Of a stretch of 26,279 bases of DNA, positions 219 to 22,047 are shown in pieces. The stretch spans positions 1 through 26,279 of IMG/VR virus record IMGVR_UViG_3300003394_000003. The stretch is one strand, 5' to 3'. Source of the DNA: a virus (Duplodnaviria > Caudoviricetes). How positions within the stretch are numbered: position 1 is the first letter of the stretch; every line of letters starts with the position of its first letter. Position numbers and translations under genes: made by a program. The notes under the pieces are model-generated. The model saw only the letters and a list, made by a program, of their open reading frames with translations, searched no databases and was not told the DNA's origin.

Positions 219-246
219 TAAACTTTATGTCTAACCTTTATATAAT
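219..246 (+). promoter_or_regulatory. Putative early promoter TAAAC-N17-TATAAT; duplicate at 24256..24283
   Basis: AAAC at 220-223, 17-nt spacer, TATAAT at 241-246, upstream of ATG 263. Confidence 0.65.
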
Positions 247-262
247 ATTAAAGAAAATTAAT

Positions 263-418
263 ATGGAGCCAAGAAAACTAAGCTTATTTCAAGCCGCAAA
301 GATCAGAGAGTACTACGAAGCTGGCGCAACGCAGAATAGATTAGCCACAATGTATGGCGTTAGTAAACAAACTATCAAATCAATAGTACAAAGAAAAACG
401 TATCAGCAAGGCGTTTAG
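263..418 (+). CDS. Small helix-turn-helix DNA-binding protein (51 aa)
   Basis: KLSLFQAAKIREYY...TQNRLATMYGVSKQTIKSIV is an HTH pattern. Start moved from 227 to 263 because 227 lies inside the promoter motif. Confidence 0.75.
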   Translation: MEPRKLSLFQAAKIREYYEAGATQNRLATMYGVSKQTIKSIVQRKTYQQGV

Positions 419-573
419 TCTTGCTGATCTTTATTCTTATTAGCAGATCTAATCCTAATCACATTAAGTATAATACCTGACACAAGAAGTGCCACTGTTA
501 ATATTGCTTGTGCGTTAACTAAATACGCACCAATGCCTACGTAACCTACTAGGTTTGCTGCACTATCTTTCAT
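415..573 (-). CDS. Small membrane protein, holin-like (52 aa; 56 aa from in-frame ATG at 585); absent from ORF track
   Basis: MKDSAANLVGYVGIGAYLVNAQAILTVALLVSGIILNVIRIRSANKNKDQQD has a hydrophobic core and a charged C-tail, and directly follows the protease gene. Confidence 0.65.
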   Translation of the reverse strand: MKDSAANLVGYVGIGAYLVNAQAILTVALLVSGIILNVIRIRSANKNKDQQD

Positions 574-577
574 TTGA

Positions 578-1846
578 TCACCCATTTTTTGTTGTTGTTC
601 GTTCTATAAACTGACCTGCAATTGAAAATCCATTCAGTTTACCTTCTTTGATTTGATTCCAAGTCTCTTCGTTATTTATTTTATATGACACATACCAATC
701 ACCTTTTGCTGGTTCAAATCCTAAAGCTACTGCTTTATCCATTTCAGGATCTTCTACGATCCATGATTCGATTAAAGTATTCTCTTCATTTGGATTCATA
801 CTGTGGTTTATATCTGTCATATGTTGTTTGTGTTCTTTTAAGAATTTCTCTGAAAGTTTTTTAACTGTTTCTGCTGTAAAGTATACGTGAAATATCTCTT
901 TAGTTACCTCATCTTTACGAGGTATCATTTGCCATGGTCTCATTGCTGGACCAGTAATAACTCTTTGTTCTTCATCTGCTGCAAATGACCATTGTTTAGA
1001 TAATCTTGCATTATTTCTTACATATCCAGTAGGACTAGGTTCTGAGCTGTTGTTAGACTCACCAGCCAATCCAGCTGCAGGTCCTTCAGATATTACTATG
1101 TTTCTACCACTATTAGATCTGAATACTCTAAGTTGCTCCCAATAATGAGTACAATTTACAGATCCTTTATAATCAAAAATACTATAGAAGTTAGTTCCAC
1201 CAGGACCGAAGCCAAAGTTAACTCCGTCCATCATGTTAATTTCTGCTCTAGTGTAGATTTTACCTAATGCAAGTAATGCTTTACAAAAGTTTCTTTGTGC
1301 GCTAGGTCCAGTATATCTGTAACTAGGTTCTGGTACTTGTTGTGCACCACTATTAGATATTTGTGCGAGTACATCTAATGCATCGATACCTCTTAAGAAT
1401 TCACCAACAGTTTCAAACTCTTCTTTAGCAAGACTTACAAATGTAGTATTAGCCATATCTAAAACTTCACCAACTTCTGGTCTTGAAGCCATTTCTAATA
1501 CAGCATCTTGATATGCATCAAAGTCAGCTTTTTTTGGTTTTAGTCCATCTACTTCATCTACGTATTTTGGAAGTGCATCTGTGTTTGCTTCAAAACTACC
1601 ATAACAAATAGCAGCAGCTTCATCTTGATCATAACCTTCTTTAATAAGTTGAGGTATGCAACGACCAATATAATCTTCTTCAGATTCACCGATGATTTTA
1701 TCTACAAATTGATGTGCAGCGAATGCAGCCCAATTAACACCAATTGCTGGCGTCTCAACTAGTGACATAATTTCGATAGCAACATCGTCAAATTCCATGC
1801 CATCTACTTCTACTTGAAGTTCTACTATTTTATTGATTCTACTCAT
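578..1846 (-). CDS. Prohead maturation protease, XkdF-like serine peptidase with a large internal insertion
   Basis: N-terminal SLVETPAI and C-terminal GPAMRP...DINH...ESWIV...W...IKEGKLNGFSIAG are typical of XkdF-like phage proteases. It precedes scaffold and capsid in circular order. Confidence 0.8.
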   Translation of the reverse strand: MSRINKIVELQVEVDGMEFDDVAIEIMSLVETPAIGVNWAAFAAHQFVDKIIGESEEDYIGRCIPQLIKEGYDQDEAAAICYGSFEANTDALPKYVDEVDGLKPKKADFDAYQDAVLEMASRPEVGEVLDMANTTFVSLAKEEFETVGEFLRGIDALDVLAQISNSGAQQVPEPSYRYTGPSAQRNFCKALLALGKIYTRAEINMMDGVNFGFGPGGTNFYSIFDYKGSVNCTHYWEQLRVFRSNSGRNIVISEGPAAGLAGESNNSSEPSPTGYVRNNARLSKQWSFAADEEQRVITGPAMRPWQMIPRKDEVTKEIFHVYFTAETVKKLSEKFLKEHKQHMTDINHSMNPNEENTLIESWIVEDPEMDKAVALGFEPAKGDWYVSYKINNEETWNQIKEGKLNGFSIAGQFIERTTTKNG

Positions 1847-1861
1847 TTTATATTTATCTTA

Positions 1862-3853
1862 TTATAATCTTGCCAGATCGGTTATCTTACGGTCAGCTTC
1901 TTGTTGATTGGTCATCTGACTAGAAACTACATATGCTTGTACCACAGTACCACCAGTGCTTCCTTGTTGGTTACCTAATGTTATTTGATTTTGTACTTGT
2001 TGTCCTTCTTGTGCAGCTCCTAAAGCAGCCGTAGGATTATAAGCAGGAATAGCGGGAACAGAAGGTACTGAACCAGCAGATCCACCACCACCTCCACCAG
2101 GTGTTTTAGTACTTAAGATCTTCTTAACATTCATAATACCTGCAGCCACAGCAACACCCGCAGCAATTGGAGCTAAAACAGGTCCAACGAATGGTACACC
2201 AACTACAGAAGCATAAGCTGCAGTAGCAGATGTATATGTTGAAATTGTGGCAGAAGCTACAGCAGCAGCTTTTCCAACAGCAGAACCTTCTCCAACTAAA
2301 TCAACTACACTATTAAGTACATCAGCACTAGCATTTAATGCATCGCCAACCTCTTGTTTTTTAAGTGCTTTCTTAAATTTAAGTTCTTCTGTTGCTAATT
2401 TTTTAGATTTATCAGTATAACCTGCATTGATAGCATTTAATTGTGTAGCAGTTGCACCAGCTAATGTGGCTTTTTCTACATCGGTAGTTCTCTGAATCTC
2501 TAATTCCATTCGAGCTTTCTCAAATGTATCTTCAATAGAATCTAACTTTTGTTGTTGTAAGATACCATCTACAATTTCTTTATTAGCTTTAGCTTTTTCT
2601 TCTTCAGCTTTTTTCTTTTCATCAGCAACTTTCTGTTTCTCTTCAGCAGCTGCTGCAAACTCATCCTTGATAGCTTGAGCTTTTTGTAAGTAGTTCTTAT
2701 CTAATTCCAATAACAGTTCATTAGAAGCTTTCTTTTCTTCTAGCTCAGCACGTTTTTGTTGTCTCTCTAATTCTAAAAGAGCCAATGCTTTAGCTTGTTT
2801 ATCTGTGATATTCTCAGCTTGTAATCTAGACAGTTCAGCAAGTAATTCTTTCTCAGTCTGTATTCTTTCATCAGCAGCCTCTTTATTCTTTGCTGCAGCA
2901 TCATCACTAGCTTTTTTAGCTTGATCTTTACCTTGAAGGATATAACCATCACGAGTATTTTTTAATTTACGTAAACCACCTTCAACTTCTTTTGCAGATT
3001 TGTCTGCTTCTTCTTTAGCACCCGCCGGGTCAAAGATTAAACCAGCTAAACCACCACTAAACTTCTCTTCTAAATTGGTACCTTTTTCCATTACACCAAT
3101 CTTAGCAAGTCCCATAGTCAGAGTATCAACTGCTTTTAATAAGATAGTAACTGGCGCTGCTATGAATCTAATAACATTCTGTGCAATTGTAGCATTTCGT
3201 TCTAAAGCTTCTTGTTGTGCTTTAGCTTGTTGCTTTTGCATAGTCAATTGAGTTTCCATTGAAGCAATGGTCTCATTAGTTTGTTGTATCTTTAGATCTC
3301 TAATCTCTTTTTCAGTCTTACCACTAAGCTTTAATGAGTTCTCAGATTCTAATGTTGAGTCTAAATTGGCTTGATTTGCAGCAGCAGTAGCTTTAGTGTC
3401 TTCTAATAACTTAGCTTGTTCACTACTTACACCACTAATTGCACCTACAATGTCATCCCAATAAGCTGCAATTAAACCGAGCGCTACAACAATAGCACCA
3501 ATACCAGTTGCAATAAGTGCTTTACCCATTGCATTAGCTCCCATTACTGCAGATTTAAATGAAGTAATAGCAGATGTACCTAATTGTTTAATACCTCCAC
3601 CTACTTCTTTAATCTGTGTACCTAAACCTCCAAATGCTTCATCGATAATCTTTGTAGCACCTTCGGCATTCTTAGCAGCTTCTTCACTGGATTTACCAAC
3701 GGTCTTTGCTGCATCACTTACATCGTTAACAGTTTTCTCTGTCTTTTTAGACTGAGTCTCAACTCCTTTAAGTGCGTTCTGTAATTCTTCAACCGAAGAC
3801 ACACTCTGTTGTATGCCTTCGATTTCGAATATTATTTTAACTTCTTCTGCCAT
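1862..3853 (-). CDS. Tail tape measure protein
   Basis: 663 aa, Ala/Lys/Glu-rich coiled coil with hydrophobic ALIATGIGAIVVALG segments and a C-terminal QAYVVSSQMT motif; adjacent to tail genes. Confidence 0.8.
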   Translation of the reverse strand: MAEEVKIIFEIEGIQQSVSSVEELQNALKGVETQSKKTEKTVNDVSDAAKTVGKSSEEAAKNAEGATKIIDEAFGGLGTQIKEVGGGIKQLGTSAITSFKSAVMGANAMGKALIATGIGAIVVALGLIAAYWDDIVGAISGVSSEQAKLLEDTKATAAANQANLDSTLESENSLKLSGKTEKEIRDLKIQQTNETIASMETQLTMQKQQAKAQQEALERNATIAQNVIRFIAAPVTILLKAVDTLTMGLAKIGVMEKGTNLEEKFSGGLAGLIFDPAGAKEEADKSAKEVEGGLRKLKNTRDGYILQGKDQAKKASDDAAAKNKEAADERIQTEKELLAELSRLQAENITDKQAKALALLELERQQKRAELEEKKASNELLLELDKNYLQKAQAIKDEFAAAAEEKQKVADEKKKAEEEKAKANKEIVDGILQQQKLDSIEDTFEKARMELEIQRTTDVEKATLAGATATQLNAINAGYTDKSKKLATEELKFKKALKKQEVGDALNASADVLNSVVDLVGEGSAVGKAAAVASATISTYTSATAAYASVVGVPFVGPVLAPIAAGVAVAAGIMNVKKILSTKTPGGGGGGSAGSVPSVPAIPAYNPTAALGAAQEGQQVQNQITLGNQQGSTGGTVVQAYVVSSQMTNQQEADRKITDLARL

Positions 3854-3858
3854 GATTA

Positions 3859-3882
3859 TAAATATAAATTATTAATGAGTTG
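3859..3882 (-). promoter_or_regulatory. Putative late promoter CA-N14-TATATTTA, 5 nt before the tape measure ATG
   Basis: - strand reads ttCAa ctcattaataatt TATATTTA taatc ATG. Confidence 0.65.
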
Positions 3883-3884
3883 AA

Positions 3885-6800
3885 TTAACAACTATTACCA
3901 TTAGGATATGGTTCAGCACCGTAATATATTATAATTGCAGTAGCACAAAAACTAGTTGCATCATATCCACTAGCAGATGGACCATTGTAATATGCAGTTT
4001 GTTCAAAACCATCACAATCTAAATAAGTAGTTTCACCAATATCATAACCACCAATTGTATAATTAATACACTCTGCTAAAGTAGGCATTGGTGTTGGTGT
4101 TGGAGGTACTGGAGTTGGTGTTGGAGTAACAGGACCACCACATGGATCTTCACCTATTATGAAAATATTAGGACCATGTACTAATGAATCTGTTTCTGCA
4201 CATATTGGTCCGAAAGATTCAAATCCACCAATATATGTTTGAATCTGAGCACCATCACATAGTGTATAACCAAGTATTTCATCAGACTGTTGACCATTAT
4301 AAAGAGTGTATTCTGTACATGCAGTTGGTCCACATGCAATACCTTGTATAGCTCCAGGTGCAATGTATGGTAATTTTATACATTCACCTAATGAATCTCC
4401 TTGAGGTACAGTTAATGTGGTTTTAAATGTATCACCACATCTAGTAAATGTGAAACTTCTTCCAGTGATTCCACCATATAATTCAAATTCAGCACATTCA
4501 AGAGTACTTGGTGTAGGTGTTGGTGGTATAAATGTTGGTGTTGGAGTAGGTGTTACAGGCGTGTCACATTCTATACAAGTATCATATGCAATGGCTACTT
4601 CTGCTTGAACATAAGGACTAGATTCAGATCTAATCCAATAACATGTCGATTCATTAAGTATATCTGCAACGCTTGGATCAATATTTTTTAATTTAATAGT
4701 AGTTCCAATAGCAAGTGGAACTAATGAACTAACATTTTGATTAAATCCACCACCTTGTGTACAACCAAGAAAATCTGGATATTCACCATGATATCCAATA
4801 TTATAGAAATAACCTTGATAATATTGGCATTGTTCACAATCAGTATATGTTTCAATTATATTAGCAATTGGTTGTAATGTACTTTCTGCAATTACAGTAA
4901 AACAACCAGGAATTGAATCTAACTCATAAGCATTTGTATTACCAATTGTTATAGGTGTTGCAGACTGTGCAATAATACTAGTGCTACCAACTGTACTACA
5001 TGTTTCATTATATTCACGTACTTCATAAGTATATGTTGGACCTGTACATTCTATGTTTACTATAGTTTGATTAGTCACACAGTTATTAAAATCTCTAACA
5101 AAATATGAGTATACACCACAACATAGACCAGTACGAGTAAAAGTACCAGCAAATGTTTGATCTGACCAAAAGATATAGAATGGTGCAGTTCCAACTGGTG
5201 TTACAACTATTTGACCATCACATTCTCCTGGTAAAGTATTAGTAGCTACATATGATGATGTTACAGGTGTACCTTCAGGAATTGTTACTGATTGAGAGAA
5301 TGTTCTACCAATAGCATCTGTTAAATCAATGGTAAACGTTCCAACTGGTACATCATCTATAGTGAATGTATATGGTGGTGGTGCGCCATTATCAAATTGA
5401 CCACTCAAACCATTAGATATTGTCCAATTGATAGGACCAGCACCTCCTGTTTCAACTAAGATACTTCCTGGTTGACCGTAACAATCAAGGTTTTGACCTG
5501 TTGCAGTAGCAAATAAGGTTTCATTATTCCAAACAGGAACATAATCATTCGCAGTTAATAACTGTACTTGTACTTCTGTATATGCACCGATTTGTACATC
5601 GATAATCTTTTCAGGTATGTAGTAAACACCATTAACAAAGATGGTATCATCAAATGAGAATGTGTTAAGATCTATATTGTTTAAGACAAAGTAAGCAGTC
5701 ACACGTCTTGAGTACTTATTGTAAAGACTAGAAATATATCTAGACCAATAACTATCGTAAAGTGTAGCACCATTTAAATTATAACCACCAGGAACCGACG
5801 TACCCCAATATTGTATATCATTAGAGAATGCCAAGTTAAGACTGCCTTGTGTAATTGGCCATGCTTCATACTGAGACATTAATGGATAACTATTAATAGC
5901 TGCGTTGTTTACCATATACCATGGTATAGGTGTAGCTTTTAGACCATTATAGAATAATAGTCTAGTTTTAGTTTTAATAGGTAAATGACGTACTTTATTT
6001 TCATCAGTCTCATGTACATGTATTTGTGGTAAGATCCAAGTACTAGTATCAGCTTCACCTTCTATTTGTGACATTGGTGTATTAGCGATACCTGTTATTT
6101 TAATCTCACGATTCCCTTTAAGTAACTCATTACCACTATCAAACTGTAACCAACCCCAATTATGTTTGTAACTTAGTTGATGATAAATGTTAATATAATC
6201 ACCATCAGTTGGTTGTGCGAAAGTAATATTATCACTTTGACTAAAGAATACTGGTTCAATTACAACATCTTTATCTTCTACAAGTTTCTTAGACCAATCA
6301 TATAATTGACCACTATTGATATAAGTTTGCCATGGCTCTACAATAAAGTTACGAGGATTATTAGGATCTGGACTTAAAACTAATCTAAACATCAATAAGA
6401 TGTCTTTGATAAAATCAATTTGTTTATATGTACACTCTAATAAAGATGCAGGATTGATATTACCAGGAGATGCTATACATGCAAATGATTGTAAAGTAGA
6501 TGAAAGAAAATCAGCACTCTCATTACATGACATAAAGAAATATACTTCATCTCCAGCATTTAAATTTAGAGTATGTGTAAGTATACTTGTACTATAACCA
6601 GCCCAAGATCCACATGCTACTGATACACCATTAACATAAAGACATATATTACCATATTCAGTTTGTTGTTCTGGTGGCCACGAAGATCTAATTTCAGTAT
6701 AACCATAGAAATATGCACTAGCAGTAAATGTGTGTTCACCTGTTGCTTGTACTATATAAGTTTGACCATCCCAAGAACCTGATGGATCTACTACTATTTC

Positions 6801-7700: not shown

Positions 7701-7715
7701 ATTTGTTTGTTTATT

Positions 7716-11149: not shown

Positions 11150-11173
11150 TAAATATAATTTAGATGTGTATTG
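11150..11173 (-). promoter_or_regulatory. Putative late promoter CA-N14-TATATTTA, 5 nt before ATG 11144
   Basis: - strand reads ttCAa tacacatctaaat TATATTTA ttagt ATG. Confidence 0.65.
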
Positions 11174-11175
11174 AA

Positions 11176-12423
11176 TTACCACTGAGTCTGTGATTTGTTC
11201 TTAGTTCCTTGCGTAACGTATTGACCATATGTTTTATTTTGTATGCGATTGTAGTTTGCTAGACATAGACTAATTACCATATCATCATGGAAAGAGTTAC
11301 GCGCAGCATATTTAACTGATCTTGTTTGTGGATTGTATGTCATCTCAAATACTTCGAGTTCTCTATGTAACTCTGGATATAGAGTAGCTGATGGTATTTT
11401 AACAGCACCTTCATTGAAACCCATTATAAGTGTCTCTACGATATCTCTCTTACTTTGATTTGATGTGTTGAATCCATGTGTGTCATGATACTTTTTCTTA
11501 ATGCCTTCTAAGACTACTGATCCCATTGAGTTAGTCTCTATCATTACTGTTGCTTTATACTTCTGAGCTAATTGGATAATGTTGTTCTGCATTGTTTCCC
11601 ATTCCTTATGGTTATCTCGGTAAATCTCAACTACTGCACCAGTAGAGTCTATTACTGTGGCTACTGTGTAATCGCCAGTTTGTGCAAGATCGACACCTAT
11701 GTAGCATTTACCTTGAGGTTTAGGCCATGATTCATATGTGTTAGCATTAAAGTTTTGAAAGACTTGTGATTCTCCTTCTAAGAATTCTCCTAAGTACTCT
11801 GCTCTAAAGATGGCATCTGGTAGTGTACGTTTAGCTGCTGCTATTTCTTCTTTGTCTATATAAGGATTGTCACCTTGTTCCATGCGGACTGATGCATGAT
11901 TACTGTATGAAGCATCTTGACCTAATTGAAAGAACTCGTAAAACCAATCACGACCTCGAGGTGTAGAGAATAAGACTACCTTTTTACCATGTACTAAGGC
12001 TGTAGGTTGGATAGCTCTCTTCCATGCTGCTTCTGATTGATATGCTGCTTCATCTAAGAATAAGTAATCAAATGTATAACCTCTTAATCCATCTTCTCTT
12101 TCTGATGATCTGAAATAGATTTTACTACCTGTCTTTAATTTAATTTCAAAGTTAGAGAAGTTGGTTGCTTCTACTATTCCACTATCTTTAATAGCTTCAT
12201 ATAGATCTTCCATTAGTTTTCTAGCTTGTTGATATATTGGTGTGATGATGCCGATTTTTGAACCTTTGTCATTTATACCATAGAACAAGATTAAGTTAAC
12301 TAATAGTAATGACTTACCAACCTGACGTGGCGAGACTACAGTAATATACTTCTCAGTACCATTTACTATAGTCTCGATAACTCTTTGTTGTCCTCTATGT
12401 GGTTGGAATCCTCTTACTTCCAT
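11176..12423 (-). CDS. terL: Terminase large subunit
   Basis: Walker A SPRQVGKS, Walker B LFLDEAA, coupling motif FSTP, and nuclease motifs IGVDLA and HDDMVISL. Confidence 0.95.
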   Translation of the reverse strand: MEVRGFQPHRGQQRVIETIVNGTEKYITVVSPRQVGKSLLLVNLILFYGINDKGSKIGIITPIYQQARKLMEDLYEAIKDSGIVEATNFSNFEIKLKTGSKIYFRSSEREDGLRGYTFDYLFLDEAAYQSEAAWKRAIQPTALVHGKKVVLFSTPRGRDWFYEFFQLGQDASYSNHASVRMEQGDNPYIDKEEIAAAKRTLPDAIFRAEYLGEFLEGESQVFQNFNANTYESWPKPQGKCYIGVDLAQTGDYTVATVIDSTGAVVEIYRDNHKEWETMQNNIIQLAQKYKATVMIETNSMGSVVLEGIKKKYHDTHGFNTSNQSKRDIVETLIMGFNEGAVKIPSATLYPELHRELEVFEMTYNPQTRSVKYAARNSFHDDMVISLCLANYNRIQNKTYGQYVTQGTKNKSQTQW

Positions 12424-13144: not shown

Positions 13145-13390
13145 TTAGTGTATATTAATATCGATTATTTCTGCTAGGATAGCGGCGATTGCACTTATAA
13201 ATATAGCTTCGAAGCCATGTGAAATAACTGTAAAACCAAACGTATACCAAAAGGTACTACACATTACACAGATAAATGGTTTTATATCTAAACTAAAGTA
13301 TTTGAGTATCTTATGATACAGTGGAGCAGAGTGTGCTAGATTAACTAAGCTTGCCATTCCTAGTATTATAAATAGGTAATTAAAATTCAT
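13145..13390 (-). CDS. Small membrane protein with a CxxC-xxFW motif
   Basis: Hydrophobic segments flank KPFICVMCSTFW. Confidence 0.7.
   Translation of the reverse strand: MNFNYLFIILGMASLVNLAHSAPLYHKILKYFSLDIKPFICVMCSTFWYTFGFTVISHGFEAIFISAIAAILAEIIDINIH
13198..13221 (-). promoter_or_regulatory. Putative late promoter CA-N14-TATATTTA upstream of the terS-terL cluster
   Basis: - strand reads ttCAc atggcttcgaagc TATATTTA, 55 nt before ATG 13142. It lies inside a CDS. Confidence 0.5.
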
Positions 13391-13910
13391 AAGTGATTCC
13401 TTGTATTTTTAGTTGTTGTTTAATATATTGTTTAGCTTCTTCTACTGCATGTGATATACTATTACGCGGAATTCCAGTTTTCTTAGCTAATTGACTATAA
13501 TTAGGTGTGACTAACCACATATTAAATAAGGTTACTCTATACCAAAGTTCTGTCTTATCTGCTGCCATATCTTCAATGATTCCTTGAATAGCACCAATAA
13601 CAAAATCCTTCTCAATATCATATGGAATATCTATAGCTTCTATTTGATGTTCAGGCTTCATCTGGTGCATTCTATTCTTCTGACGATAGATTCTATGGTA
13701 TTCTGACGTTGAACTGTTGAATGATCTCCAAATGATTCCTGATAAGAAATTCATAGCTCTGTTAGTATCTACAAGTTCTTGGCCTCTTTCATGCTCCATA
13801 AAACACTGAATAGCAAAGTGTGCTACATCTTCTGACTCATGACTACCTTTACATATCTTCTTAGTCATTAAAATGATTTTGTCGTAATTATTAGTTATAA
13901 AGTTATTCAA
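13380..13910 (-). CDS. Sigma-70/ECF-like phage transcription factor
   Basis: 176 aa. N-terminal region-2-like segment (YDKIILMTKKI...SEDVAH) and C-terminal HTH (NYSQLAKKTGIPRNSISHAVEEAKQYIK); last regulator before the packaging genes. Confidence 0.7.
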   Translation of the reverse strand: MNNFITNNYDKIILMTKKICKGSHESEDVAHFAIQCFMEHERGQELVDTNRAMNFLSGIIWRSFNSSTSEYHRIYRQKNRMHQMKPEHQIEAIDIPYDIEKDFVIGAIQGIIEDMAADKTELWYRVTLFNMWLVTPNYSQLAKKTGIPRNSISHAVEEAKQYIKQQLKIQGITYEF

Positions 13911-14677: not shown

Positions 14678-14681
14678 GTTT

Positions 14682-15230
14682 TTAAAAGTCTTTATCAAAA
14701 TCCATAGCTAGACTTAATAGTCTTGTATCAATATCATTAACGTTAATTTCTTCTTTAAAAATATCAAAAGAAAAAGATTCAGGCTTAGTACTTATTTTAG
14801 TATCTTCTATAGTAACCTTATCTAGTACCTTATCTAGTATATGGGTTGTGCCAAGTTGGCAATCCAGCTGTGCCATAATGGCAGTATCACTATGCCCCGT
14901 TGGCAAGGTAGTACTGCCATATTGGCAAGGTGACTGTGCCCCAATGGCATAGTACCCTTTCTCTAAAGTGTACTCTAATTCTGTTTGATTTATTGCAAGG
15001 ACTTGTCTATTATTAGGAAGTCTTTTAACTACTTCGATAATACCATACTCTTTTAGTTTCTTAAGAGTTCTGCAATACGTTCTTGCTGATGTATAATACA
15101 TGTCACAATATTCTTCTTGAGACATAAAGTGTTCCTTTTTGTTTTTAGACCAAGATTGAATAACTGTTATTAGTTTTGCTTCTTCATTGCCTAATTTAAA
15201 TAATTCATTTTGTATTTGTGTAAATGCCAT
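14682..15230 (-). CDS. Replication initiator-like winged-HTH protein
   Basis: N-terminal FMSQEEYCDMYYTSARTYCRTLKKLKEYGII is a wHTH typical of phage replisome organisers, and the gene contains an iteron array as in lambda O. Confidence 0.75.
   Translation of the reverse strand: MAFTQIQNELFKLGNEEAKLITVIQSWSKNKKEHFMSQEEYCDMYYTSARTYCRTLKKLKEYGIIEVVKRLPNNRQVLAINQTELEYTLEKGYYAIGAQSPCQYGSTTLPTGHSDTAIMAQLDCQLGTTHILDKVLDKVTIEDTKISTKPESFSFDIFKEEINVNDIDTRLLSLAMDFDKDF
14815..14838. repeat. 12-bp tandem repeat ACCTTATCTAGT x2 beside the iterons
   Basis: Copies at 14815-14826 and 14827-14838, bordering an AT-rich tract. Confidence 0.7.
14849..14949. repeat. Putative replication origin: five palindromic iterons TGCC-N5-GGCA at an exact 22-bp period
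   Basis: Units start at 14849, 14871, 14893, 14915 and 14937 (tgccaagttggca, tgccataatggca, tgccccgttggca, tgccatattggca, tgccccaatggca). Confidence 0.85.
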
Positions 15231-15254
15231 TTGTATTTTACTTTTTTTTATTTG

Positions 15255-15404
15255 TTACCATCCATAAACTACACGTTTAATAGATGATGTTGATCGTTGT
15301 ACAAATCGTGCGATCTGAGAGAATGAATATCCTTTTGATCTGTACTCTCTGATAATAGCTCTTTCAGCTTCAGTTACTCTTGTTCTTCCTTGTGGTGTTT
15401 CCAT
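15255..15404 (-). CDS. Small HTH regulator (49 aa); absent from ORF track
   Basis: METPQGRTRVTEAERAIIREYRSKGYSFSQIARFVQRSTSSIKRVVYGW is a clear HTH and is the first gene after the leftward early promoter. Confidence 0.8.
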   Translation of the reverse strand: METPQGRTRVTEAERAIIREYRSKGYSFSQIARFVQRSTSSIKRVVYGW

Positions 15405-15436
15405 AATTTTTGTTTGTTTAAATTGTTTTTATACTT

Positions 15437-15465
15437 ATTATATTGAACCATGTTCTATTGTTTCA
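15437..15465 (-). promoter_or_regulatory. Putative early promoter TGAAAC-N17-TATAAT for the HTH/rep/sigma operon
   Basis: - strand reads TGAAAC aatagaacatggttcaa TATAAT aagtata. Confidence 0.7.
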
Positions 15466-15509
15466 TATGGTTCTATAATATATATCTATATAAAAATGTA
15501 AAAAAGTCA

Positions 15510-15538
15510 TGAAACAATAAATAGTTTGCTGGTATAAG
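15510..15538 (+). promoter_or_regulatory. Putative early promoter TGAAAC-N17-TATAAG, divergent from the rep operon
   Basis: TGAAAC aataaatagtttgctgg TATAAG tagtata. Confidence 0.65.
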
Positions 15539-15544
15539 TAGTAT

Positions 15545-15674
15545 ATCAACCGTTAAACATTTCCAAATGAAGCATTGATATATAGACTGACATATATTTT
15601 TAATGTATATGTGTTTTTATTTTATTTTACTTTTTTAATACCAGTGTTTCTTGATCGTTCACTGGTATTTTTTT
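15545..15674 (+). ncRNA. Candidate ~130-nt small RNA
   Basis: Bounded by a promoter motif and a terminator, with no credible ORF. Ends are approximate. Confidence 0.4.
15637..15674 (+). terminator. Intrinsic terminator
   Basis: Stem aataccagtg / cactggtatt followed by a T run. Confidence 0.75.
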
Positions 15675-15688
15675 GCTTACTAGTGAAC

Positions 15689-15730
15689 AAAAAAGAACCC
15701 CTTACTAAAATGGCTTAAAGTAAGGGGTTC
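15689..15730 (-). terminator. Intrinsic terminator ending the portal-to-RBP operon
   Basis: 12-bp stem gaaccccttact / agtaaggggttc, followed by T6 on the - strand. Confidence 0.8.
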
Positions 15731-15792
15731 ATGCCTAAAAATAATCGATAGAAATTATGAGAAACTACCGATAAGTTATATATCTTTTTTTA

Positions 15793-17460
15793 TTATGCAA
15801 CAGTTACAGAGTCAATCCAAATATAATCTGCAGTAATACCACTCGAAACAGCACATATATTTACAAATGAATCTAATAGAAAGGCAGCAGTACTTGCGTC
15901 TAATTGAGTATATGTAAAATCTTGCCAAGTCGTAGTCAATGCAATTGTTTGTGGTTTATAATTTGTAGTGATTGCAGTGTTTTGTGCAGTACCTGTTTGT
16001 GTTAAAGGTGTTAATAAACAAATAATAGCATTAGTAGAAGCACTAGCCTTTGCTCTTATAGTTATTGTTTTAGCAGCAGATGTTGTATTATAATACTGAC
16101 TAATAGGCATTCTTGTCGGTTGGTTATTTATTGCATCTAATTTACTTAATCTTAATGAATTGGTTCCAGTATCAAACACAGAACTATCTGCAAATGCGAT
16201 TCCTGTTGAACTATAAACTTGTTTATCACCTTCAATATCTTTAATATAACCAATAGCATTAGTAGAATAATAATTATATCCTGACCCAGCTAAAGAAAAA
16301 TCTTCAATCTTTTTAGTATTTAATTTAATAATATTTGTCATAGCAGCATTTTGACCATTTGAAATTGCTAATTTATATCCAGATAGATTATTACCTGAAA
16401 CTTGAATATCATTATTAATAACACAACTTGTTCCAACGAAACTAGAAAATAAAACAATATTTTCAGTAATACCACTGTTTTGTTGTGTTGCAATATAAAG
16501 ATTATCTATAATCATAAATGAACCTAAACAAAGACCGTATGATTGTAAACCTGTACTGAACATACTTCTAGCATACCAATTATTACATTTAAGTAAAATG
16601 TTACTACTAGATGAAGGCGCTGCAGTATTAGCATACCATATATTTCCAAATTGTTGTTGAGGTGCATCATTTTCTATAGGATATTGACCTCCTAAAGTTT
16701 GAGTAAATGTTGAGTTAGTTAAATATAAATCTGGTAAAGCATATGAATGTACAGTTAATGGTGCAGCTCCATATGGCGAAGCGTTAGTAAAATATACAAA
16801 TGCTAATGTTCCCATTAACCATCTTGATGTACCACCTCCAAAGCCTGTATTTAAATGTGATAACATAAATTTATCAAAATAAAGTGATCCATTTGCACCA
16901 CCAGTTGGACCAGTGAATCCATTACCTGATTTAGCAGTCGCAGATGCTCCATGATAATTCATAACTGTCCATCCATCTTGTGCAGTAAAAGAATTAGTCC
17001 AACCACCTGTAATTTTAAAATTATCTTTACCACTAATAGTAACATTTTCAAAAGTAACGCTAGCAGTTGTAGTATAATAATGTTGTGTAGTTATTTTAGA
17101 GAATGATAATTCAACAAATGATGCTCTATTCCATGCACCATCTACTGTAATTTGTGTTGATGTAACTGTTTGAACTTTGTAGAAAAACTTTTGATCTCCA
17201 AATTCTGCATCATTTACTGTAATAATATCACCAGGAAATAATGTACCAGTTAAATCACTCGAAGTTATCCATGTTGTACTAGTAGATCCAACTGCTGTTA
17301 CTGTTCCTGCTAATGCAGTAAAACCTGAACCAGCAGTTCTAATTTCATCACCATTAATACCAATAGTCATGGCTTTGTTAATAGTTTTATATGGTAATGC
17401 AATACTACCGTCTCCAGTACTATCATTACCTGTTAAATAATCTGTATGCCAAATTCCCAT
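15793..17460 (-). CDS. Putative receptor-binding/tailspike-like virion protein
   Basis: N-terminal GNDSTGDGS..PYKTINKA motif seen before beta-helix domains, a Ser/Thr/Asn-rich beta body, and a C-terminal CBM-like jelly roll (LTTTWQDFTY...IWIDSVTV). Confidence 0.6.
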   Translation of the reverse strand: MGIWHTDYLTGNDSTGDGSIALPYKTINKAMTIGINGDEIRTAGSGFTALAGTVTAVGSTSTTWITSSDLTGTLFPGDIITVNDAEFGDQKFFYKVQTVTSTQITVDGAWNRASFVELSFSKITTQHYYTTTASVTFENVTISGKDNFKITGGWTNSFTAQDGWTVMNYHGASATAKSGNGFTGPTGGANGSLYFDKFMLSHLNTGFGGGTSRWLMGTLAFVYFTNASPYGAAPLTVHSYALPDLYLTNSTFTQTLGGQYPIENDAPQQQFGNIWYANTAAPSSSSNILLKCNNWYARSMFSTGLQSYGLCLGSFMIIDNLYIATQQNSGITENIVLFSSFVGTSCVINNDIQVSGNNLSGYKLAISNGQNAAMTNIIKLNTKKIEDFSLAGSGYNYYSTNAIGYIKDIEGDKQVYSSTGIAFADSSVFDTGTNSLRLSKLDAINNQPTRMPISQYYNTTSAAKTITIRAKASASTNAIICLLTPLTQTGTAQNTAITTNYKPQTIALTTTWQDFTYTQLDASTAAFLLDSFVNICAVSSGITADYIWIDSVTVA

Positions 17461-17461
17461 A

Positions 17462-17638
17462 TTAATTTATTATTTTATTTGTTATGTATTCGATACAACT
17501 TTCTAAAGTATTTCTATATACTATTTCAATAACATTAGTTTCTAAATGTTTCTCGTAAACTTTATATGTTCCATCTTTTTCAACAATATCATATTGTATT
17601 GTGATTTCTTTATTGTGATCTGAGTAAATTATTTCCAT
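17462..17638 (-). CDS. Hypothetical protein (58 aa); absent from ORF track
   Basis: [58 protein letters not shown] has a TAATG overlap with the upstream gene and ends 1 nt before the next ATG. Confidence 0.7.
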   Translation of the reverse strand: MEIIYSDHNKEITIQYDIVEKDGTYKVYEKHLETNVIEIVYRNTLESCIEYITNKIIN

Positions 17639-18162
17639 TATTTAAGTTTTATGTTTATTCCATTTGTTATCCATTTTGATTCTCCTGCGCTAGATTCTGA
17701 TAAAATAGTTTCTAATCCAAATGTTAACCAATTAGTTAATCCAGCAACTGGTGTTGGTGTTGGAGGTATTGGTGTTGGTGTTGGAGGTATTGGAGTCGGT
17801 GTTGGCGGAACTGGAGTCGGAGTAGGTGGTGCTACTGTAGCAGTTGGTGTTGGTGGTATTGGTGTTGGAGTAGGACCAGGAATTATAGAAAATGCCAAAG
17901 CCATCCAAAATGTTCCACCAGTTGGATATGTAATACCATAATAGTTTGCCAAAGCAATAGTCCAAGAACCATTTAAAGGTTCAGTAATACCAAAATGATT
18001 ACATAAAGCAATTAACCAACTAGAATTAACTGGTTGAGTAATCCCTAAGTATTCACAATAAGCTTGGATGTAAGAACCATTTACAGGTTCAACCACATTA
18101 CCATTAGATTGTGTGTATACGTATTGTGCAATTGCACTAGAAATGTCGTTATCAAAAGCCAT
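17638..18162 (-). CDS. Repeat protein with four ~18-aa repeats and a Pro-Thr linker (probable virion decoration/fibre)
   Basis: [18 protein letters not shown] / [18 protein letters not shown] / [18 protein letters not shown] / [13 protein letters not shown], followed by repeated PTPTPIP units. Confidence 0.65.
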
Positions 18163-18169
18163 ATGTCTT

Positions 18170-18193
18170 TAAATATAAATTTAGTTTAAGTTG
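18170..18193 (-). promoter_or_regulatory. Putative late promoter CA-N14-TATATTTA, 7 nt before ATG 18162
   Basis: - strand reads gaCAa cttaaactaaatt TATATTTA aagacat ATG. Confidence 0.65.
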
Positions 18194-18384
18194 TCTACAT
18201 TTTTAGATTTCAATAATCTATCAACTACATCCACAACCATTTGAGATCCGATATAAGCAGTTGATACTATTACCCAATCTCCTGATGTTAAGTTACCTGA
18301 GAAGAGTCCAAAAGATCCAACAGCAAATACTACTAGCTTTCGACTAACGTACTTGTTTATTATTTGATCTAGATTCTTTCTCAT
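18181..18384 (-). CDS. Holin-like membrane protein (67 aa)
   Basis: SRKL motif followed by two hydrophobic segments and a charged C-terminus. Confidence 0.55.
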   Translation of the reverse strand: MRKNLDQIINKYVSRKLVVFAVGSFGLFSGNLTSGDWVIVSTAYIGSQMVVDVVDRLLKSKNVDNLN

Positions 18385-18428
18385 TTGATAGGTAAACTTT
18401 TAATTTTTTAATATTAATAGCAGTGCTC

Positions 18429-19013
18429 TTAGTTACACGTGCTACAGTCGGGATTACAATCTGTTCCGCAATCTTCATAAATCCAAAGGTTTCTATTGTT
18501 ATAAGGTATATTAGTTTGAATTCCACTGAAATAACTAGTTCTAGCATTTCTTGGCATACCATTTCCAGACCATGTTAACCATTCTTGGAACATGTTTGGA
18601 TGTTGGCGTAAGAATTCTCTCATTCTTTCATCGTAAAATTGAGCAGTTTCCATTGTAGCTTCTCTCAAATACTGTAATTCTTGTAGTGATGTTGGTTGAG
18701 TTTCTTCACTAGTACCATTTAAGATACCTTTTTCAACTAACTTATACTTTAAATTAGGCATAATCAAATACAATGCATATTGCATCAAAGTTGGTCCTAC
18801 ATAATCTTTAAGGAATGCTTCTTCATCTACTGTAAGATCATTAAGTTTTACACCTTCTTTAAGTCTATTAAAGAATCTGGTACCTAAACTATCTTGTACA
18901 TAAATTTCTTGAGCATTTAGAATACTTGGCGTTAGGACATCAATTCGAATGTTTTTATCTAAAGCAGTCCATTGCTTCATTCTTTGTTCTGATACTAATA
19001 ATACAGTTTCCAT
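18429..19013 (-). CDS. Head-tail adaptor/connector protein (probable)
   Basis: 194-aa helical protein immediately after the portal gene (AQEIYVQDSLGT..F motif), with a Cys-rich C-tail. Confidence 0.6.
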   Translation of the reverse strand: METVLLVSEQRMKQWTALDKNIRIDVLTPSILNAQEIYVQDSLGTRFFNRLKEGVKLNDLTVDEEAFLKDYVGPTLMQYALYLIMPNLKYKLVEKGILNGTSEETQPTSLQELQYLREATMETAQFYDERMREFLRQHPNMFQEWLTWSGNGMPRNARTSYFSGIQTNIPYNNRNLWIYEDCGTDCNPDCSTCN

Positions 19014-20176
19014 TATGCTTGTGGTATATTGTTAATGTTTTGATCTTCAGGAGCATTTGGTCCTTCAGCCTGTTCCATTGGTATTTCTATTAATTTATTA
19101 GGAATAACACAAATTCTTATATTATATCCAGCTAATTTAAGAATGTAACCAAAACTTGTTGTGATTTTCTTTCTTTTAGGTTCGATTACAGTACCTTCAA
19201 AGTGTGCGTAACTAACTTTAATTTCATCTGCATTAGAACTGAATCCCGCAGCATCCTTGATACCTAATAATAAAGGCGATGTAATTCTATGTGCAGTCAA
19301 AATACGTGAAGAGATGCGTTCTTCTAATGTTAGGTAATAACCATCATTAGCTGCAGTAATTGGAGTTACTTCTGGTGCTGTGTCAGCGTCTGAGAATGAT
19401 AAAAAGAATCTACCAGCATTTTCTTCACCAGCATAAGTTTCTTGAATTTCTCTATAAACTTCTGATCTTTGTTCTGGTGTTGGTATACCATTTCTAAATG
19501 CAATGAATAAAGATGGTGCTAAACCATTTGTAATATTATTGACATGAAAACGACTGACTTTAGCATCAAGATTAATATCATTTAGAGCAGCAACATAAGC
19601 AGGTAGTGGATAATAGTCATTACCCGGTGTATACCCATAATAATAAAATATTTGAGACGCGTCATCACCTTTGTTTTCTGTTGGATCGAATGCTTTATAT
19701 CTGGTTTCAGGATATTTTCTTAAATTAGCCCAATTGCTTGAGTAATAATAAGAATCAATAATATCATCTTCATTCATTTTACCAGATCTAACATTGTTAA
19801 ATGGTAAGTGATATACTTCAGCAATAGCAGTTCTCTCTTTATTCCAGATCACATTTAAAGCATATCCTTGATACAATGAATAATCTAATACAATCTTTTC
19901 AAAGATATCATCAATAGTCTCGCCCTTAGTGTTTATGTACTCTTCACCAATTGTTTTGATACCTTCACCAAAGATACCATCTTTAATTGCATCAATAGCA
20001 GTGTGATGCATTGCTGAGCTATCATATAACTCAATTAATTTCTCTGGAAATAAGTTAAGTTCTCCGTAGAAAACATAATCTTTATTTCTAATTTCTTTAA
20101 TTATTGGCAATGCTGGTGCAGCAAATGCACTACCTTTTACCGAATAAATATTCTTGTTGTCTTCTTTATTTTCCAT
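19013..20176 (-). CDS. Portal protein
   Basis: 387 aa with HK97-like portal features (YYPLPAY, NNITNGLAPS, GEENAG, ILTAHRITSPLLLGI). Confidence 0.85.
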   Translation of the reverse strand: MENKEDNKNIYSVKGSAFAAPALPIIKEIRNKDYVFYGELNLFPEKLIELYDSSAMHHTAIDAIKDGIFGEGIKTIGEEYINTKGETIDDIFEKIVLDYSLYQGYALNVIWNKERTAIAEVYHLPFNNVRSGKMNEDDIIDSYYYSSNWANLRKYPETRYKAFDPTENKGDDASQIFYYYGYTPGNDYYPLPAYVAALNDINLDAKVSRFHVNNITNGLAPSLFIAFRNGIPTPEQRSEVYREIQETYAGEENAGRFFLSFSDADTAPEVTPITAANDGYYLTLEERISSRILTAHRITSPLLLGIKDAAGFSSNADEIKVSYAHFEGTVIEPKRKKITTSFGYILKLAGYNIRICVIPNKLIEIPMEQAEGPNAPEDQNINNIPQA

Positions 20177-20184
20177 ATTTGATT

Positions 20185-20544
20185 TTAATAGTTTGGTCTA
20201 TAATATACTTCGGATTCTCTATTTTCAGTTACAGTTCCAGAATTATATTCTAATATATTTATTCCACCTCCTGGCTCGCATATAATTTTAGCATAACCTT
20301 CTTCGAATATCTCAGTATTATTTGAAATAGTATAGTAATAGACACCATTTTTGTGTTCATCTTTGAAATTAATTCCAAAGTCTACTTCTAATTCAGTATA
20401 TCTTGCATTTTGAGATATTAATAATGCTGGAAATGGTTCAGGTATCTTAGCATAACCACTAGTTAAAGTGAATACTAAGTCTCCAGTTATTTCTACATTA
20501 TTAGAGTAAATCAATTTTAATTGTTGATCAATGTATACAGTCAT
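20185..20544 (-). CDS. Hypothetical (probably structural) protein preceding portal
   Basis: 119-aa beta-rich ORF, first gene after a late-type motif. Confidence 0.6.
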   Translation of the reverse strand: MTVYIDQQLKLIYSNNVEITGDLVFTLTSGYAKIPEPFPALLISQNARYTELEVDFGINFKDEHKNGVYYYTISNNTEIFEEGYAKIICEPGGGINILEYNSGTVTENRESEVYYRPNY

Positions 20545-20569
20545 TTAAATTGTGTATGTTTGTTATCTT

Positions 20570-20593
20570 TAAATATAAAAGACTAAGATGTTG
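20570..20593 (-). promoter_or_regulatory. Putative late promoter CA-N14-TATATTTA (portal operon)
   Basis: - strand reads taCAa catcttagtcttt TATATTTA. Confidence 0.65.
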
Positions 20594-20598
20594 TAATT

Positions 20599-20628
20599 TG
20601 AAACAGTTTTACGCAACTAGCATATAAT
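20599..20628 (+). promoter_or_regulatory. Putative early promoter TGAAAC-N18-TATAAT
   Basis: TGAAAC agttttacgcaactagca TATAAT, upstream of ORF 20678. Confidence 0.6.
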
Positions 20629-20677
20629 AAATGTCTTTAGCCTCAAAGGTAGATTAGGTGGGACTAATATATACATT

Positions 20678-21145
20678 ATGACAATATACGGTGAACACAC
20701 AGCAGAAGAGATCTTACCAATTAATAGTGTTAAAGATCCTAGATTTCAAACATGGCTAAGAGAAATTCTTAAATTGGATTGGAATGGTTATGAATTATGG
20801 TTATACGGAGGAATATTAGAGAACAGAAAGACTGCAGATATTGATGGGTGTTTCATTGGAGCTCCAGATCCAACTCGAATAGAATATCTATTAGATAACA
20901 TAGTAAGAATTAGTTTTGCATTAGGGATCTACCCAGACATTCAATATAATATTACTGGAGAGTTATATGATCCTCTTATTGATAAACAGAAAACTATTAC
21001 ATATGCATATTATAGACAATATCTAAACTATAAAGGAATGGAATTTAATAGAGGTCTACCAAAAGATGGCTTCTTTCAAAGAGAAATTAAATGGCCACAT
21101 AGTAAAGAAAGTATAATGCCTCAACATCCAATTCAGATAATTTAA
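20678..21145 (+). CDS. Minimal Pol-beta-superfamily nucleotidyltransferase-like protein
   Basis: LWLYGGILENRKTADIDGCF fits hG[GS]x7-13DhD, with a candidate third Asp in YPDIQY. Confidence 0.6.
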   Translation: MTIYGEHTAEEILPINSVKDPRFQTWLREILKLDWNGYELWLYGGILENRKTADIDGCFIGAPDPTRIEYLLDNIVRISFALGIYPDIQYNITGELYDPLIDKQKTITYAYYRQYLNYKGMEFNRGLPKDGFFQREIKWPHSKESIMPQHPIQII

Positions 21146-21170
21146 ACTATTTAGAATATCTACATATAAA
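21143..21170 (+). promoter_or_regulatory. Putative early promoter TAAAC-N17-TATAAA
   Basis: TAAAC tatttagaatatctaca TATAAA, 11 nt before ATG 21182. Confidence 0.55.
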
Positions 21171-21181
21171 AATAAAAAATT

Positions 21182-21634
21182 ATGACAACATATTATATTT
21201 ACGAAGTACCAGGACATAAAATAGGAGCTACTATTAATTGGGATAAAAGATCTTTAGAAAATACTAGAATGTATAATATATCACCAATTATTGTAGAAAC
21301 GATACAAGGTCCTAATACAGCAGAAATGTGGCAAATAGTAGGAGATCGTGAATGGGAATTAGCAAACAAACATGAATACAATAAAGGAGAACATTATAGA
21401 ATTGCTAGAGAAAAAAGAATAAAAGCAAATTTAAAAGGTGCACGTTTAGGAGGTTTAGCAGGTAAAAATAAACCTAATAAACATTTAAGATCTTTAACAA
21501 CAGATCAAATATTAGAGATTAAATCAAAATATATTCCTAAACTATATAATCAAGCCAGATTATCAAAAGAATATAATGTTACAGTTATGACTATATCTAA
21601 TGTTTTAAACAATAAATTTTATAAAATAGAATAA
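21182..21634 (+). CDS. GIY-YIG-like endonuclease with C-terminal HTH (homing-endonuclease-like)
   Basis: YYIYE...KIGAT...R...E N-terminal pattern and C-terminal LTTDQILEIK...QARLSKEYNVTVMTISNV HTH. Confidence 0.55.
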   Translation: MTTYYIYEVPGHKIGATINWDKRSLENTRMYNISPIIVETIQGPNTAEMWQIVGDREWELANKHEYNKGEHYRIAREKRIKANLKGARLGGLAGKNKPNKHLRSLTTDQILEIKSKYIPKLYNQARLSKEYNVTVMTISNVLNNKFYKIE

Positions 21635-21636
21635 AA

Positions 21637-21665
21637 TGAAACTGTTTCCAATACCTCAGTATAAT
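21637..21665 (+). promoter_or_regulatory. Putative early promoter TGAAAC-N17-TATAAT
   Basis: TGAAAC tgtttccaatacctcag TATAAT cagtata. Confidence 0.7.
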
Positions 21666-21688
21666 CAGTATAACTTTAAATAATTATA

Positions 21689-21922
21689 ATGGAAACACAA
21701 TTCAAATCAAAACCAACAGATCCTAAAGTACAAGCTTGGATCGATGCTGAACATGCAGCAACAATGTTACCTAACGCTATCAGCGATTTAACAGAAGCAG
21801 TAACAGAGTTAACAAATCAAAAATGTGACTTTACTGGATGGAACGTACCAGAATGTTTATCTAACATCTACTACGAAATGAAAAGAATGAATGATCTTAA
21901 AGAAAAAGAATTAGGATTGTAA
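21689..21922 (+). CDS. Hypothetical early protein (77 aa)
   Basis: ORF with its own promoter motif and terminator; no family recognised. Confidence 0.7.
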   Translation: METQFKSKPTDPKVQAWIDAEHAATMLPNAISDLTEAVTELTNQKCDFTGWNVPECLSNIYYEMKRMNDLKEKELGL

Positions 21923-21949
21923 AGATAAGGTCGAAAGACCTTTCTTTTT
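21921..21949 (+). terminator. Intrinsic terminator, possibly bidirectional
   Basis: aaggtc-GAAA-gacctt hairpin followed by tcttttt; the - strand side is followed by atcttt. Confidence 0.7.
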
Positions 21950-22012
21950 AATAATAAATATCAGAGTTTCTCGTAAGGCGGAGACTATACTCTAGATTGT
22001 CTCTACCTGTTT
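21921..22012 (-). ncRNA. Candidate ~90-nt structured small RNA
   Basis: Lies downstream of promoter motif 22019-22047, contains hairpin aggtagagac / gtctccgcct, and ends at the 21927 hairpin. Ends are approximate. Confidence 0.4.
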
Positions 22013-22018
22013 CCATTA

Positions 22019-22047
22019 GTTATAGAGATTATTTTGAGTTAGTTTCA
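22019..22047 (-). promoter_or_regulatory. Putative early promoter TGAAAC-N17-TATAAC with no downstream CDS
   Basis: - strand reads TGAAAC taactcaaaataatctc TATAAC. Confidence 0.55.

Follow-up and report, generated by a model that had tools for sequence, protein, structure and literature searches.

A small tailed phage carries promoter-like sites of the replication-gene class of T4-like jumbo phages

Satellites of phages are usually recognised by their missing virion genes, and P4 uses the activators of its helper P2. Transcription of the phage-inducible chromosomal island-like element (PLE) of Vibrio cholerae is described as being switched on by infection with the helper ICP1, with abundant non-coding RNAs (PMC7567579). 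The small satellites MiniFlayer and MulchRoom have their own capsid and packaging genes and depend on a larger phage; MiniFlayer is non-integrating, has no primase and grips its helper with short fibres, and MulchRoom, like the capsid-forming phage-inducible chromosomal islands (cf-PICIs), takes helper tails (PMC10690885). The word 'promoter' is absent from the main text of that source, and in the relevant passages of PMC10690885, PMC12822802 and PMC7567579 satellites use helper capsids or tails, or no link between promoters and their dependence is drawn. The virophages Sputnik and Mavirus have their own particle, carry the promoter motif of the giant virus and presumably rely on its transcription machinery (PMC6723459). 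Here we describe a virus record of 26,279 nucleotides (IMGVR_UViG_3300003394_000003; 'the window' is this whole stretch), which holds one circular, AT-rich genome of 24,037 bp (about 34% GC) plus a terminal repeat of 2,242 bp. This aquatic phage carries seven sites whose sequence fits the 'middle' promoter class, the one placed before replication genes in T4-like jumbo phages that encode a SigW-like sigma factor of the extracytoplasmic function (ECF) type. The use of a jumbo middle promoter class by a small phage is new here, and no description of the motif or of the phage family was found in the literature, in a search that did not extend to subscription papers or supplements.

We consider it fairly probable that the window phage is a virion-complete satellite, switched on in a virophage-like manner by the ECF sigma of a jumbo phage. 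As its predicted promoters are of the giant-phage replication type, the small phage likely cannot start without a co-infecting giant phage that supplies the predicted sigma, and its dependence may be obligate. Like the virophages (Lavidaviridae), it has genes under the promoter motif of a large virus and encodes its own particle, which we use as a working analogy and not as a statement of membership. Virophages have eukaryotic hosts, a different, non-tailed capsid lineage, a viral factory and late promoters, whereas the window has tailed-phage genes, sites of the middle class, a proposed borrowed sigma on the host polymerase and a predicted late sigma of its own. Unlike MiniFlayer, MulchRoom and the cf-PICIs, it encodes a tape measure and, by prediction, a tail tube, and it would depend on its helper for transcription. 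In terms of virion borrowing it is not like PICIs, cf-PICIs, PLE or P4, since portal, terminase, protease, neck, tape measure and a tail-tube fold are encoded, with the capsid gene assigned by position and size. PLE and P4 are integrated and borrow the helper virion, whereas the window phage has no integrase match and was not found as a prophage. No catalogue would tell a satellite with a complete set of virion genes from an ordinary small phage, and the true frequency of helper dependence could therefore be much higher than present counts suggest.

Seven promoter-like sites and their recurrence in the family

A sequence-only reading of the window had described seven sites of an unusual promoter class, and we found all of them in place, two with starts shifted by 1 nt. 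The spacer is 17 nt in six sites and 18 nt at 20599, and AGTATA continues three sites, as had been claimed. AAAC-N17/18-TATAA holds as their consensus, whereas the fuller form (T)GAAAC-N17-TATAAT does not, the -35 side being TGAAAC in five of the seven and TTAAAC in two, and TATAAT ending only four. The bit scores below come from a matrix trained on 77 jumbo-phage sites only, for which the AAAC and TATAA cores were required.

218..246, plus strand: middle-type site TTAAAC-N17-TATAAT before a small helix-turn-helix gene, 20.9 bits; repeated at 24255-24283 in the terminal repeat
15437..15465, minus strand: middle-type site heading the operon helix-turn-helix, Rep, 190 aa, 85 aa, own sigma, 22.3 bits, with a counterpart at this position in relatives
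15510..15538, plus strand: divergent middle-type site with no open reading frame (ORF) above 22 codons after it, 21.5 bits
20599..20660, plus strand: N18 site with a downstream leader common to jumbos; 29 nt identical to jumbo record G014:33682-33710
21142..21170, plus strand: middle-type site (TTAAAC) before a 150-aa gene, 23.6 bits
21637..21665, plus strand: middle-type site before a 77-aa gene, 20.1 bits
22019..22047, minus strand: middle-type site just past the tail-tube terminator, with only a 22-codon ORF after it and facing the 77-aa gene, 15.8 bits

The jumbo matrix ranked exactly these seven sites at 15.8-23.6 bits, with the next best at 6.7, and on 40 shuffles it gave a mean of 0.1 sites of at least 15 bits and at most 1. 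Enrichment over shuffled sequence, which the sequence-only reading had proposed as a check, was also found: AAAC-N17/18-TATAA occurs nine times in the window, namely as the seven sites, the second copy of the 219 site in the terminal repeat (24257) and an intragenic match that the sequence-only reading did not list (15956-15982, minus strand, 4.3 bits), compared with 2.17 ± 1.56 in 100 shuffles (maximum 6). In 75 loci of the phage family (641 kb, partly redundant) TGAAAC-N17-TATAA was found 52 times and the N18 form 13 times, and none of the remaining spacings between 10 and 25 occurred more than twice; the motif is conserved in relatives. In 11 near-complete family records the motif was counted 29 times compared with 2 for the reversed pattern. 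The spacer varies in sequence between conserved boxes, the pattern that a promoter would show. It had been supposed that the sites precede every non-structural unit and no structural operon. The structural genes do have a different, late motif, whereas the sites at 15510 and 22047 stand before no ORF of more than 22 codons. We regard the seven sites as predicted promoters.

Given the AT-rich genome, and a host assignment that rests on portal similarity and one bin, the sites could be read as chance matches or as the ordinary housekeeping promoter of a host outside the Bacteroidota. This is very improbable and largely refuted by the N17 peak (52 compared with 0-2 at other spacings except N18), by the 100 shuffles, none of which reached nine, and by the presence of the same class in phage PAU, the host of which is Sphingobacterium (PMC3738902).

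The sites fit neither of the two standard promoter types, as had been noted. A TAnnTTTG -7 box with upstream TTG is absent from all seven, and no TAnnTTTG box was found in the region heading the Rep operon, with six loose boxes elsewhere in 1,183 intergenic nt. The sigma70 promoter TTGACA-N16-18-TATAAT was rejected, with no exact match in the window and 58 loose matches compared with 65 in shuffles. The best score for a jumbo-type early promoter in the window was 3.8 bits, below the mean shuffle maximum of 5.9, with a matrix that transfers poorly to sites of the type in jumbo record G001, so that variants could escape.

The divergent site at 15510 is also present in 7 of the 15 sigma-bearing sequences of the family. 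A non-coding RNA of about 150 nt probably starts from it (15544-15690), ending at a hairpin near 15640-15680. An Rfam scan of positions 14500-24400 gave one chance match and none for this putative RNA.

The same class in jumbo phages and DNA held in common

An 18-letter version of the motif gave 19 stretches in IMG/VR, large contigs among them. G001 (170 kb) has 15 sites compared with 1 in the control; it is T4-like, and its capsid protein is closest to those of LR756500, Lak, PTm1 and PAU. Enrichment was likewise found in G008 (24 vs 3), G010 (25 vs 5), G014 (17 vs 1), G017 (14 vs 0) and G018 (17 vs 2), and is partly selected, because these jumbo records were found through the motif. Records that were not selected in this way gave 27 vs 2 for PAU and 33 vs 12 for LR756500, and the motif stood at control level in PTm1, MaF61 (2 vs 1) and Lak-A2 (17 vs 17).

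In G010 an early class is host-like and ends in TATATTAG or TATATTTAC, the TGAAAC motif lies before replication and metabolism genes, and GATATATA lies before virion genes. The window sites, of the replication-gene class, are better named 'middle' than 'early', the term first applied to them. The late boxes vary by jumbo lineage, being TTATACATA in PAU and GATATATA in the aquatic group (G010, G008). A single ECF sigma family of about 200 aa is encoded by 10 of the 35 motif-bearing records, and the motif was found within 260 nt upstream of none of these 10 genes, which have the early class upstream instead; gp55-like jumbo genes have the motif upstream in 6 of 7 cases. No RNA polymerase beta was found in five jumbo records, three of them incomplete. 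The aquatic jumbo records are only 59-76% complete.

The best PDB match of the jumbo ECF sigma is SigW (E 2e-9), with the last, C-terminal helix conserved. Region 4 of SigW has been crystallised on ATTGAAACCTTT, and this helix binds the TGAAAC-containing -35 element (PMC6713349). The helix of the jumbo ECF goes in step with the motif, being kept in LR756500 and altered in Lak-A2 and MaF61. The sigma cascade of the T4-like Bacteroidota jumbos has the same motif and position class as the window, and the jumbo ECF is most similar to Bacillus subtilis SigW; the window sites differ in lying in a small genome, unrelated to the jumbos, with no gene for that sigma. The -10 side is RTATAA here, not the CGT box given for ECF promoters in the passages of PMC9723704. 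A purine directly precedes TATAA in 48 of the 53 sites of the family. The earlier description of the sites as a hybrid of an ECF -35 and a sigma70 -10 is probably unnecessary, because a single phage sigma of the SigW-like ECF type could recognise the two boxes together.

In the proposed order of events, the jumbo phage would make its ECF sigma from a host-type early promoter, and this sigma, on host RNA polymerase, would fire the Rep operon and the accessory genes of the small phage. The Rep operon would yield the small phage's own ECF-like sigma, which would read CA-N14-TATATTTA, the late motif that precedes the genes for head, tail and terminase, and host and helper functions would serve DNA synthesis and lysis. 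A start would be limited to cells also infected by a jumbo phage.

Phage PAU bears on the choice of the reader. It carries the motif and has neither an orthologue of the jumbo ECF nor the early class, and its only sigma-family genes are gp1 and a gp55-like gene. PAU gp1 (JQ362498, 94-1182; L119, L127) is of the sigma70 family and bears the GenBank note 'internal capsid vertex protein (mango) subunit 2', and its upstream region holds both the TGAAAC motif and the PAU late box. No host-type early class was seen in PAU; a sigma packaged in the virion would account for its start. Hua et al. 2017 described inner structures beneath the PAU vertices, in passages in which the words 'sigma' and 'mango' are absent. 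PAU DNA has modified cytosine. With these two sigma-family genes in PAU and incomplete aquatic records, the window phage could be helper-dependent with another jumbo product as the reader, either a factor of the sigma70 type, such as PAU has, or a co-activator redirecting the host sigma. We find this improbable, since the gp1 homologue is absent from G010, G008 and G001, MA9V-1 and PTm1 have gp1 homologues without the motif, and it is the ECF helix that co-varies with the motif.

The small phages and the jumbos also hold DNA in common. The site at 20599-20627 equals its G014 counterpart in 29 of 29 nt, spacer included, and the likeness runs about 30 nt further (87% over 63 columns in G014; 86% over 70 nt in G003). 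The jumbo counterpart points away from a gene that, from its position and sequence start in G001 and G003, was taken for a putative single-strand binding protein gene. The N18 sites are followed by a conserved leader of about 35 nt starting GTCTTTA, found at 20628-20660 in the window, at 33649-33681 in G014, at 50010-50044 in G003, in three copies in G001, in G008, and in the loci L020, L065 and L067. Several N18 sites have no ORF after them and a terminator-like hairpin instead, which suggests a small RNA or origin transcript common to jumbos and small phages.

A blastn comparison of the family loci with jumbo records gave 215 matches, the best being early-promoter modules of 50-130 nt at 78-98% identity, and no match to 280 kb of candidate host. 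Of the 74 loci 25 have such jumbo modules, as do 4 of 6 complete genomes; they lie upstream of small accessory genes that vary between members, and are absent from the window and G006. Almost no genes are shared between the family and the jumbos; an exception is a domain of about 99 aa inserted in some protease genes (L040, L042, L046, L047, L349) and 47-54% identical to part of a jumbo protein (G002/G003). Capture of regulatory DNA in co-infected cells would be a better fit than convergence. Exact pieces of the window phage occur at contig level in two freshwater RNA runs from two studies (shares 0.17 and 0.07), and both runs also hold G014-like jumbo contigs that cover 29/30 and 21/30 bins of a 20-kb stretch (longest contig 2,273 nt, 64 differences, 97%); this co-occurrence is weak, as it concerns two of two runs without control runs and contigs of RNA libraries may be DNA.

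We lean slightly towards a broader reading, in which this widespread family of tailed phages of about 24 kb would be the bacterial counterpart of the virophages, with their own head and tail and with host promoters replaced by DNA captured from T4-like jumbos, the jumbo sigma licensing replication and the shared promoters naming the helper from sequence alone. If true, the jumbo phages of aquatic Bacteroidota would have a layer of parasites of their own, the lack of a cultured match for so abundant a family (one capsid query gave 74 loci) would be explained, and matching of promoter classes between small and large phages would become a general computational test.

Own sigma, host factors and the late class

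The motif stands at the head of the operon of the phage's own sigma factor in all but one of 15 sigma-bearing sequences (14 of 15, duplicates included), which agrees with the earlier placement of a sigma-like gene downstream of one such site, and a jumbo-early site was found upstream in none. In the window one host-like box lies upstream of this operon, within the 555-aa gene and before two hairpins.

13380..13910, minus strand: own ECF-like sigma factor, predicted late sigma; TIGR02937 over its full length, below the cut-off

The best Foldseek matches of its AlphaFold model are ECF sigmas (E 0.035, SigL), with no sequence match in PDB. The protein is barely related to the jumbo ECF (E 0.02-0.4), and its C-terminal helix differs from the SigW-like helix. 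The structural operons carry a separate bipartite late motif, CA-N14-TATATTTA, in which C and A each reach 0.92 at -16/-15 (90 sites). It was found at six minus-strand places in the window:

20570..20593, minus strand: predicted late promoter CA-N14-TATATTTA before the portal operon
18170..18193, minus strand: predicted late promoter before the 174-aa, 58-aa and 555-aa genes
13198..13221, minus strand: predicted late promoter upstream of the terminase genes
11150..11173, minus strand: predicted late promoter before the tail genes
3859..3882, minus strand: predicted late promoter before the tape measure gene
187..210, minus strand: predicted late promoter before scaffold, capsid and tail tube; also 24224-24247

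The modelled ECF-like fold would also suit a reading in which the own sigma reads the TGAAAC motif in positive feedback, started by leaky transcription or by a virion-carried protein, for which PAU gp1 is a possible precedent; the late genes would then be served by a host sigma and a phage helix-turn-helix activator, in line with the resemblance of the late box to host -7 variants. This seems rather unlikely to us, given the distance of the own sigma from the jumbo ECF, its lack of the SigW-like helix and a bipartite late motif that needs a reader of its own, and it leaves the shared jumbo DNA unexplained.

A Flavobacteriia host is likely, because the nearest cultured portal is that of Nonlabens phage P12024S and family members occur in a Flavobacteriaceae bin. 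In the co-binned Flavobacteriaceae genome TAnnTTTG was found in 59 of 160 leaders compared with 14 expected, and the TGAAAC motif in none of the 160. The motif showed no excess in 151 Flavobacteriaceae genomes (748 vs 871 in the control), nor in 12 cultured records of Flavobacteriia phages (16 vs 23), so an unusual host housekeeping sigma, one of the three outside factors first proposed, is not supported. Start sites of F. psychrophilum comprise TAnnTTTG variants, sigma54, TAnnTTGY and a CGT class, none of them motif-like in the passages of PMC9723704. P12024S (Inhavirus) resembles the window in its portal and in a sigma-region-2 gene near the terminase; unlike the window phage it is autonomous, with 35.7 kb and genes for primase, helicase, recombinase and peptidase M15, and has host-type TATATTTG boxes before its replication genes.

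A host stress sigma, also among the first proposals, is disfavoured. By this account an ECF sigma of a shared Flavobacteriia host would read the motif and both phage groups would exploit it, the small phage being autonomous and gated by the host state. PAU, which carries the motif without an ECF gene of its own, would fit, as would the seven ECF sigmas of F. psychrophilum, whose regulons are not all known (PMC9723704), and a mild excess at the level of the phylum: with a stricter pattern, 201 Bacteroidota genomes gave 82 matches (3 on small-phage contigs, which leaves 79) compared with 50 in the control, at most 4 per genome. We nevertheless hold it to be unlikely, as the excess does not appear in the family Flavobacteriaceae, the leaders of the co-binned host and the 12 cultured phage records lack the motif signal, and the identical spacer and the early-promoter modules are left unexplained. 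Twenty host matches, selected because they were recurrent or belonged to multi-hit cases, were inspected, and 16 are within ORFs. The recurrent matches were rejected as a regulon on account of their position in coding sequence; four fall in an ORF that its N-terminal motif marks as tRNA-synthetase-like. The host scans would miss a small degenerate regulon. An outside factor for first transcription is likely, and a co-infecting larger phage is well favoured among the three proposed sources by the jumbo matrix, the shared site, and the jumbo motif and ECF gene layout.

In addition to the limits on the jumbo-record counts and on the RNA runs given above, several points weigh against a satellite switched on by a jumbo ECF sigma. 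The mild excess in Bacteroidota is one of them. PAU has the motif without the jumbo ECF orthologue, so the jumbo ECF is not the only possible reader; gp1 or a host factor may read the motif, which keeps a host sigma and a packaged own sigma alive as alternatives. The late box TATATTTA is like host -7 variants (8 vs 2.2 expected in host leaders), and a host sigma might therefore reach the structural genes. In the family genome G195 no clear site lies upstream of the own sigma. A helicase or loader is present in some relatives. As the majority of the small ORFs are without a family match, a lysin or activator of divergent sequence could have escaped notice. No mechanism of persistence or co-entry was identified and no integrase was found, and Rep under helper control could presumably not maintain a plasmid alone.

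Gene content and the phage family

Nearly all window genes lie on the minus strand. Family searches recognised terminase, portal, protease, neck and tape measure, and the recognisable replication and transcription genes are limited to the Rep-like protein, two small helix-turn-helix proteins and the ECF-like sigma. None of the 30 window ORFs matched a family of RNA polymerase, DNA polymerase, primase, helicase, integrase or lysin in three libraries, and most small ORFs matched nothing; that the phage has no RNA polymerase, as first stated, thus agrees with these searches. No lysin was found among 56 and 69 ORFs of relatives.

263..418, plus strand: small helix-turn-helix protein, 51 aa, from family searches
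15255..15404, minus strand: helix-turn-helix protein, 49 aa, first gene of the Rep operon
14682..15230, minus strand: replication-initiator-like winged-helix protein (Rep-like); PHROG 428/678, E 9e-5 to 2e-4
20678..21145, plus strand: nucleotidyltransferase-like protein, 155 aa, family-conserved; Atlas lead, cluster of 52 ORFs
22109..22624, minus strand: predicted tail tube protein, 171 aa; model pLDDT 76
22688..23587, minus strand: probable major capsid protein, family marker, from position and size; PHROG 11320 (function unknown)
1862..3853, minus strand: tape measure protein; PHROG 24676, E 8e-16
11176..12423, minus strand: terminase large subunit, from family searches
19013..20176, minus strand: portal, from family searches; nearest cultured relative Nonlabens phage P12024S, 28% identity

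Almost all top Foldseek rows of the tail tube model are tail tubes or Hcp, at weak E values of 0.002-0.02. With the capsid as the query, 74 family loci were found in IMG/VR, every one on a contig below 25 kb, and no cultured phage matched; the Rep query gave one relative only, and the terminase matches gave nothing informative on the host. The family is one of widespread tailed phages of about 24 kb, marine and freshwater. In GTDB the capsid query gave two free contigs of about 24 kb in a single Flavobacteriaceae bin, and a third such contig lies in the same bin, so that one Flavobacteriaceae genome was binned with three different family genomes (G042 contigs C5, C7, C8). Neither prophage nor chromosomal residence was seen, the GTDB matches being free contigs of about 24 kb only, with no integrase match.

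The nucleotidyltransferase-like gene (20678-21145; in relatives e.g. L029:3044-3535) lies opposite to the virion-gene strand. In about one third of the relatives GATAAATA or GATATATA, which resemble the jumbo late box, stands directly before its start. The count of jumbo late boxes in front of this gene (22/33 vs 2.1) was set aside, because the late box of the phage itself, read as its reverse complement, confounds it. Stretches of Pro-Thr repeats in the window virion genes (17749-17832, 9906-9963, 4090-4133) are like those in jumbo virion genes; they are of low complexity and were not counted as evidence. The replication module is exchangeable among members, with a DnaB-like helicase, a VapE-like ATPase, or Rep and a DnaC-like loader (L013:11157-13800; L025:15161-16947; L049:8856-10050), and one family member carries a gene like the T4 beta-glucosyltransferase (L060:1435-2493).

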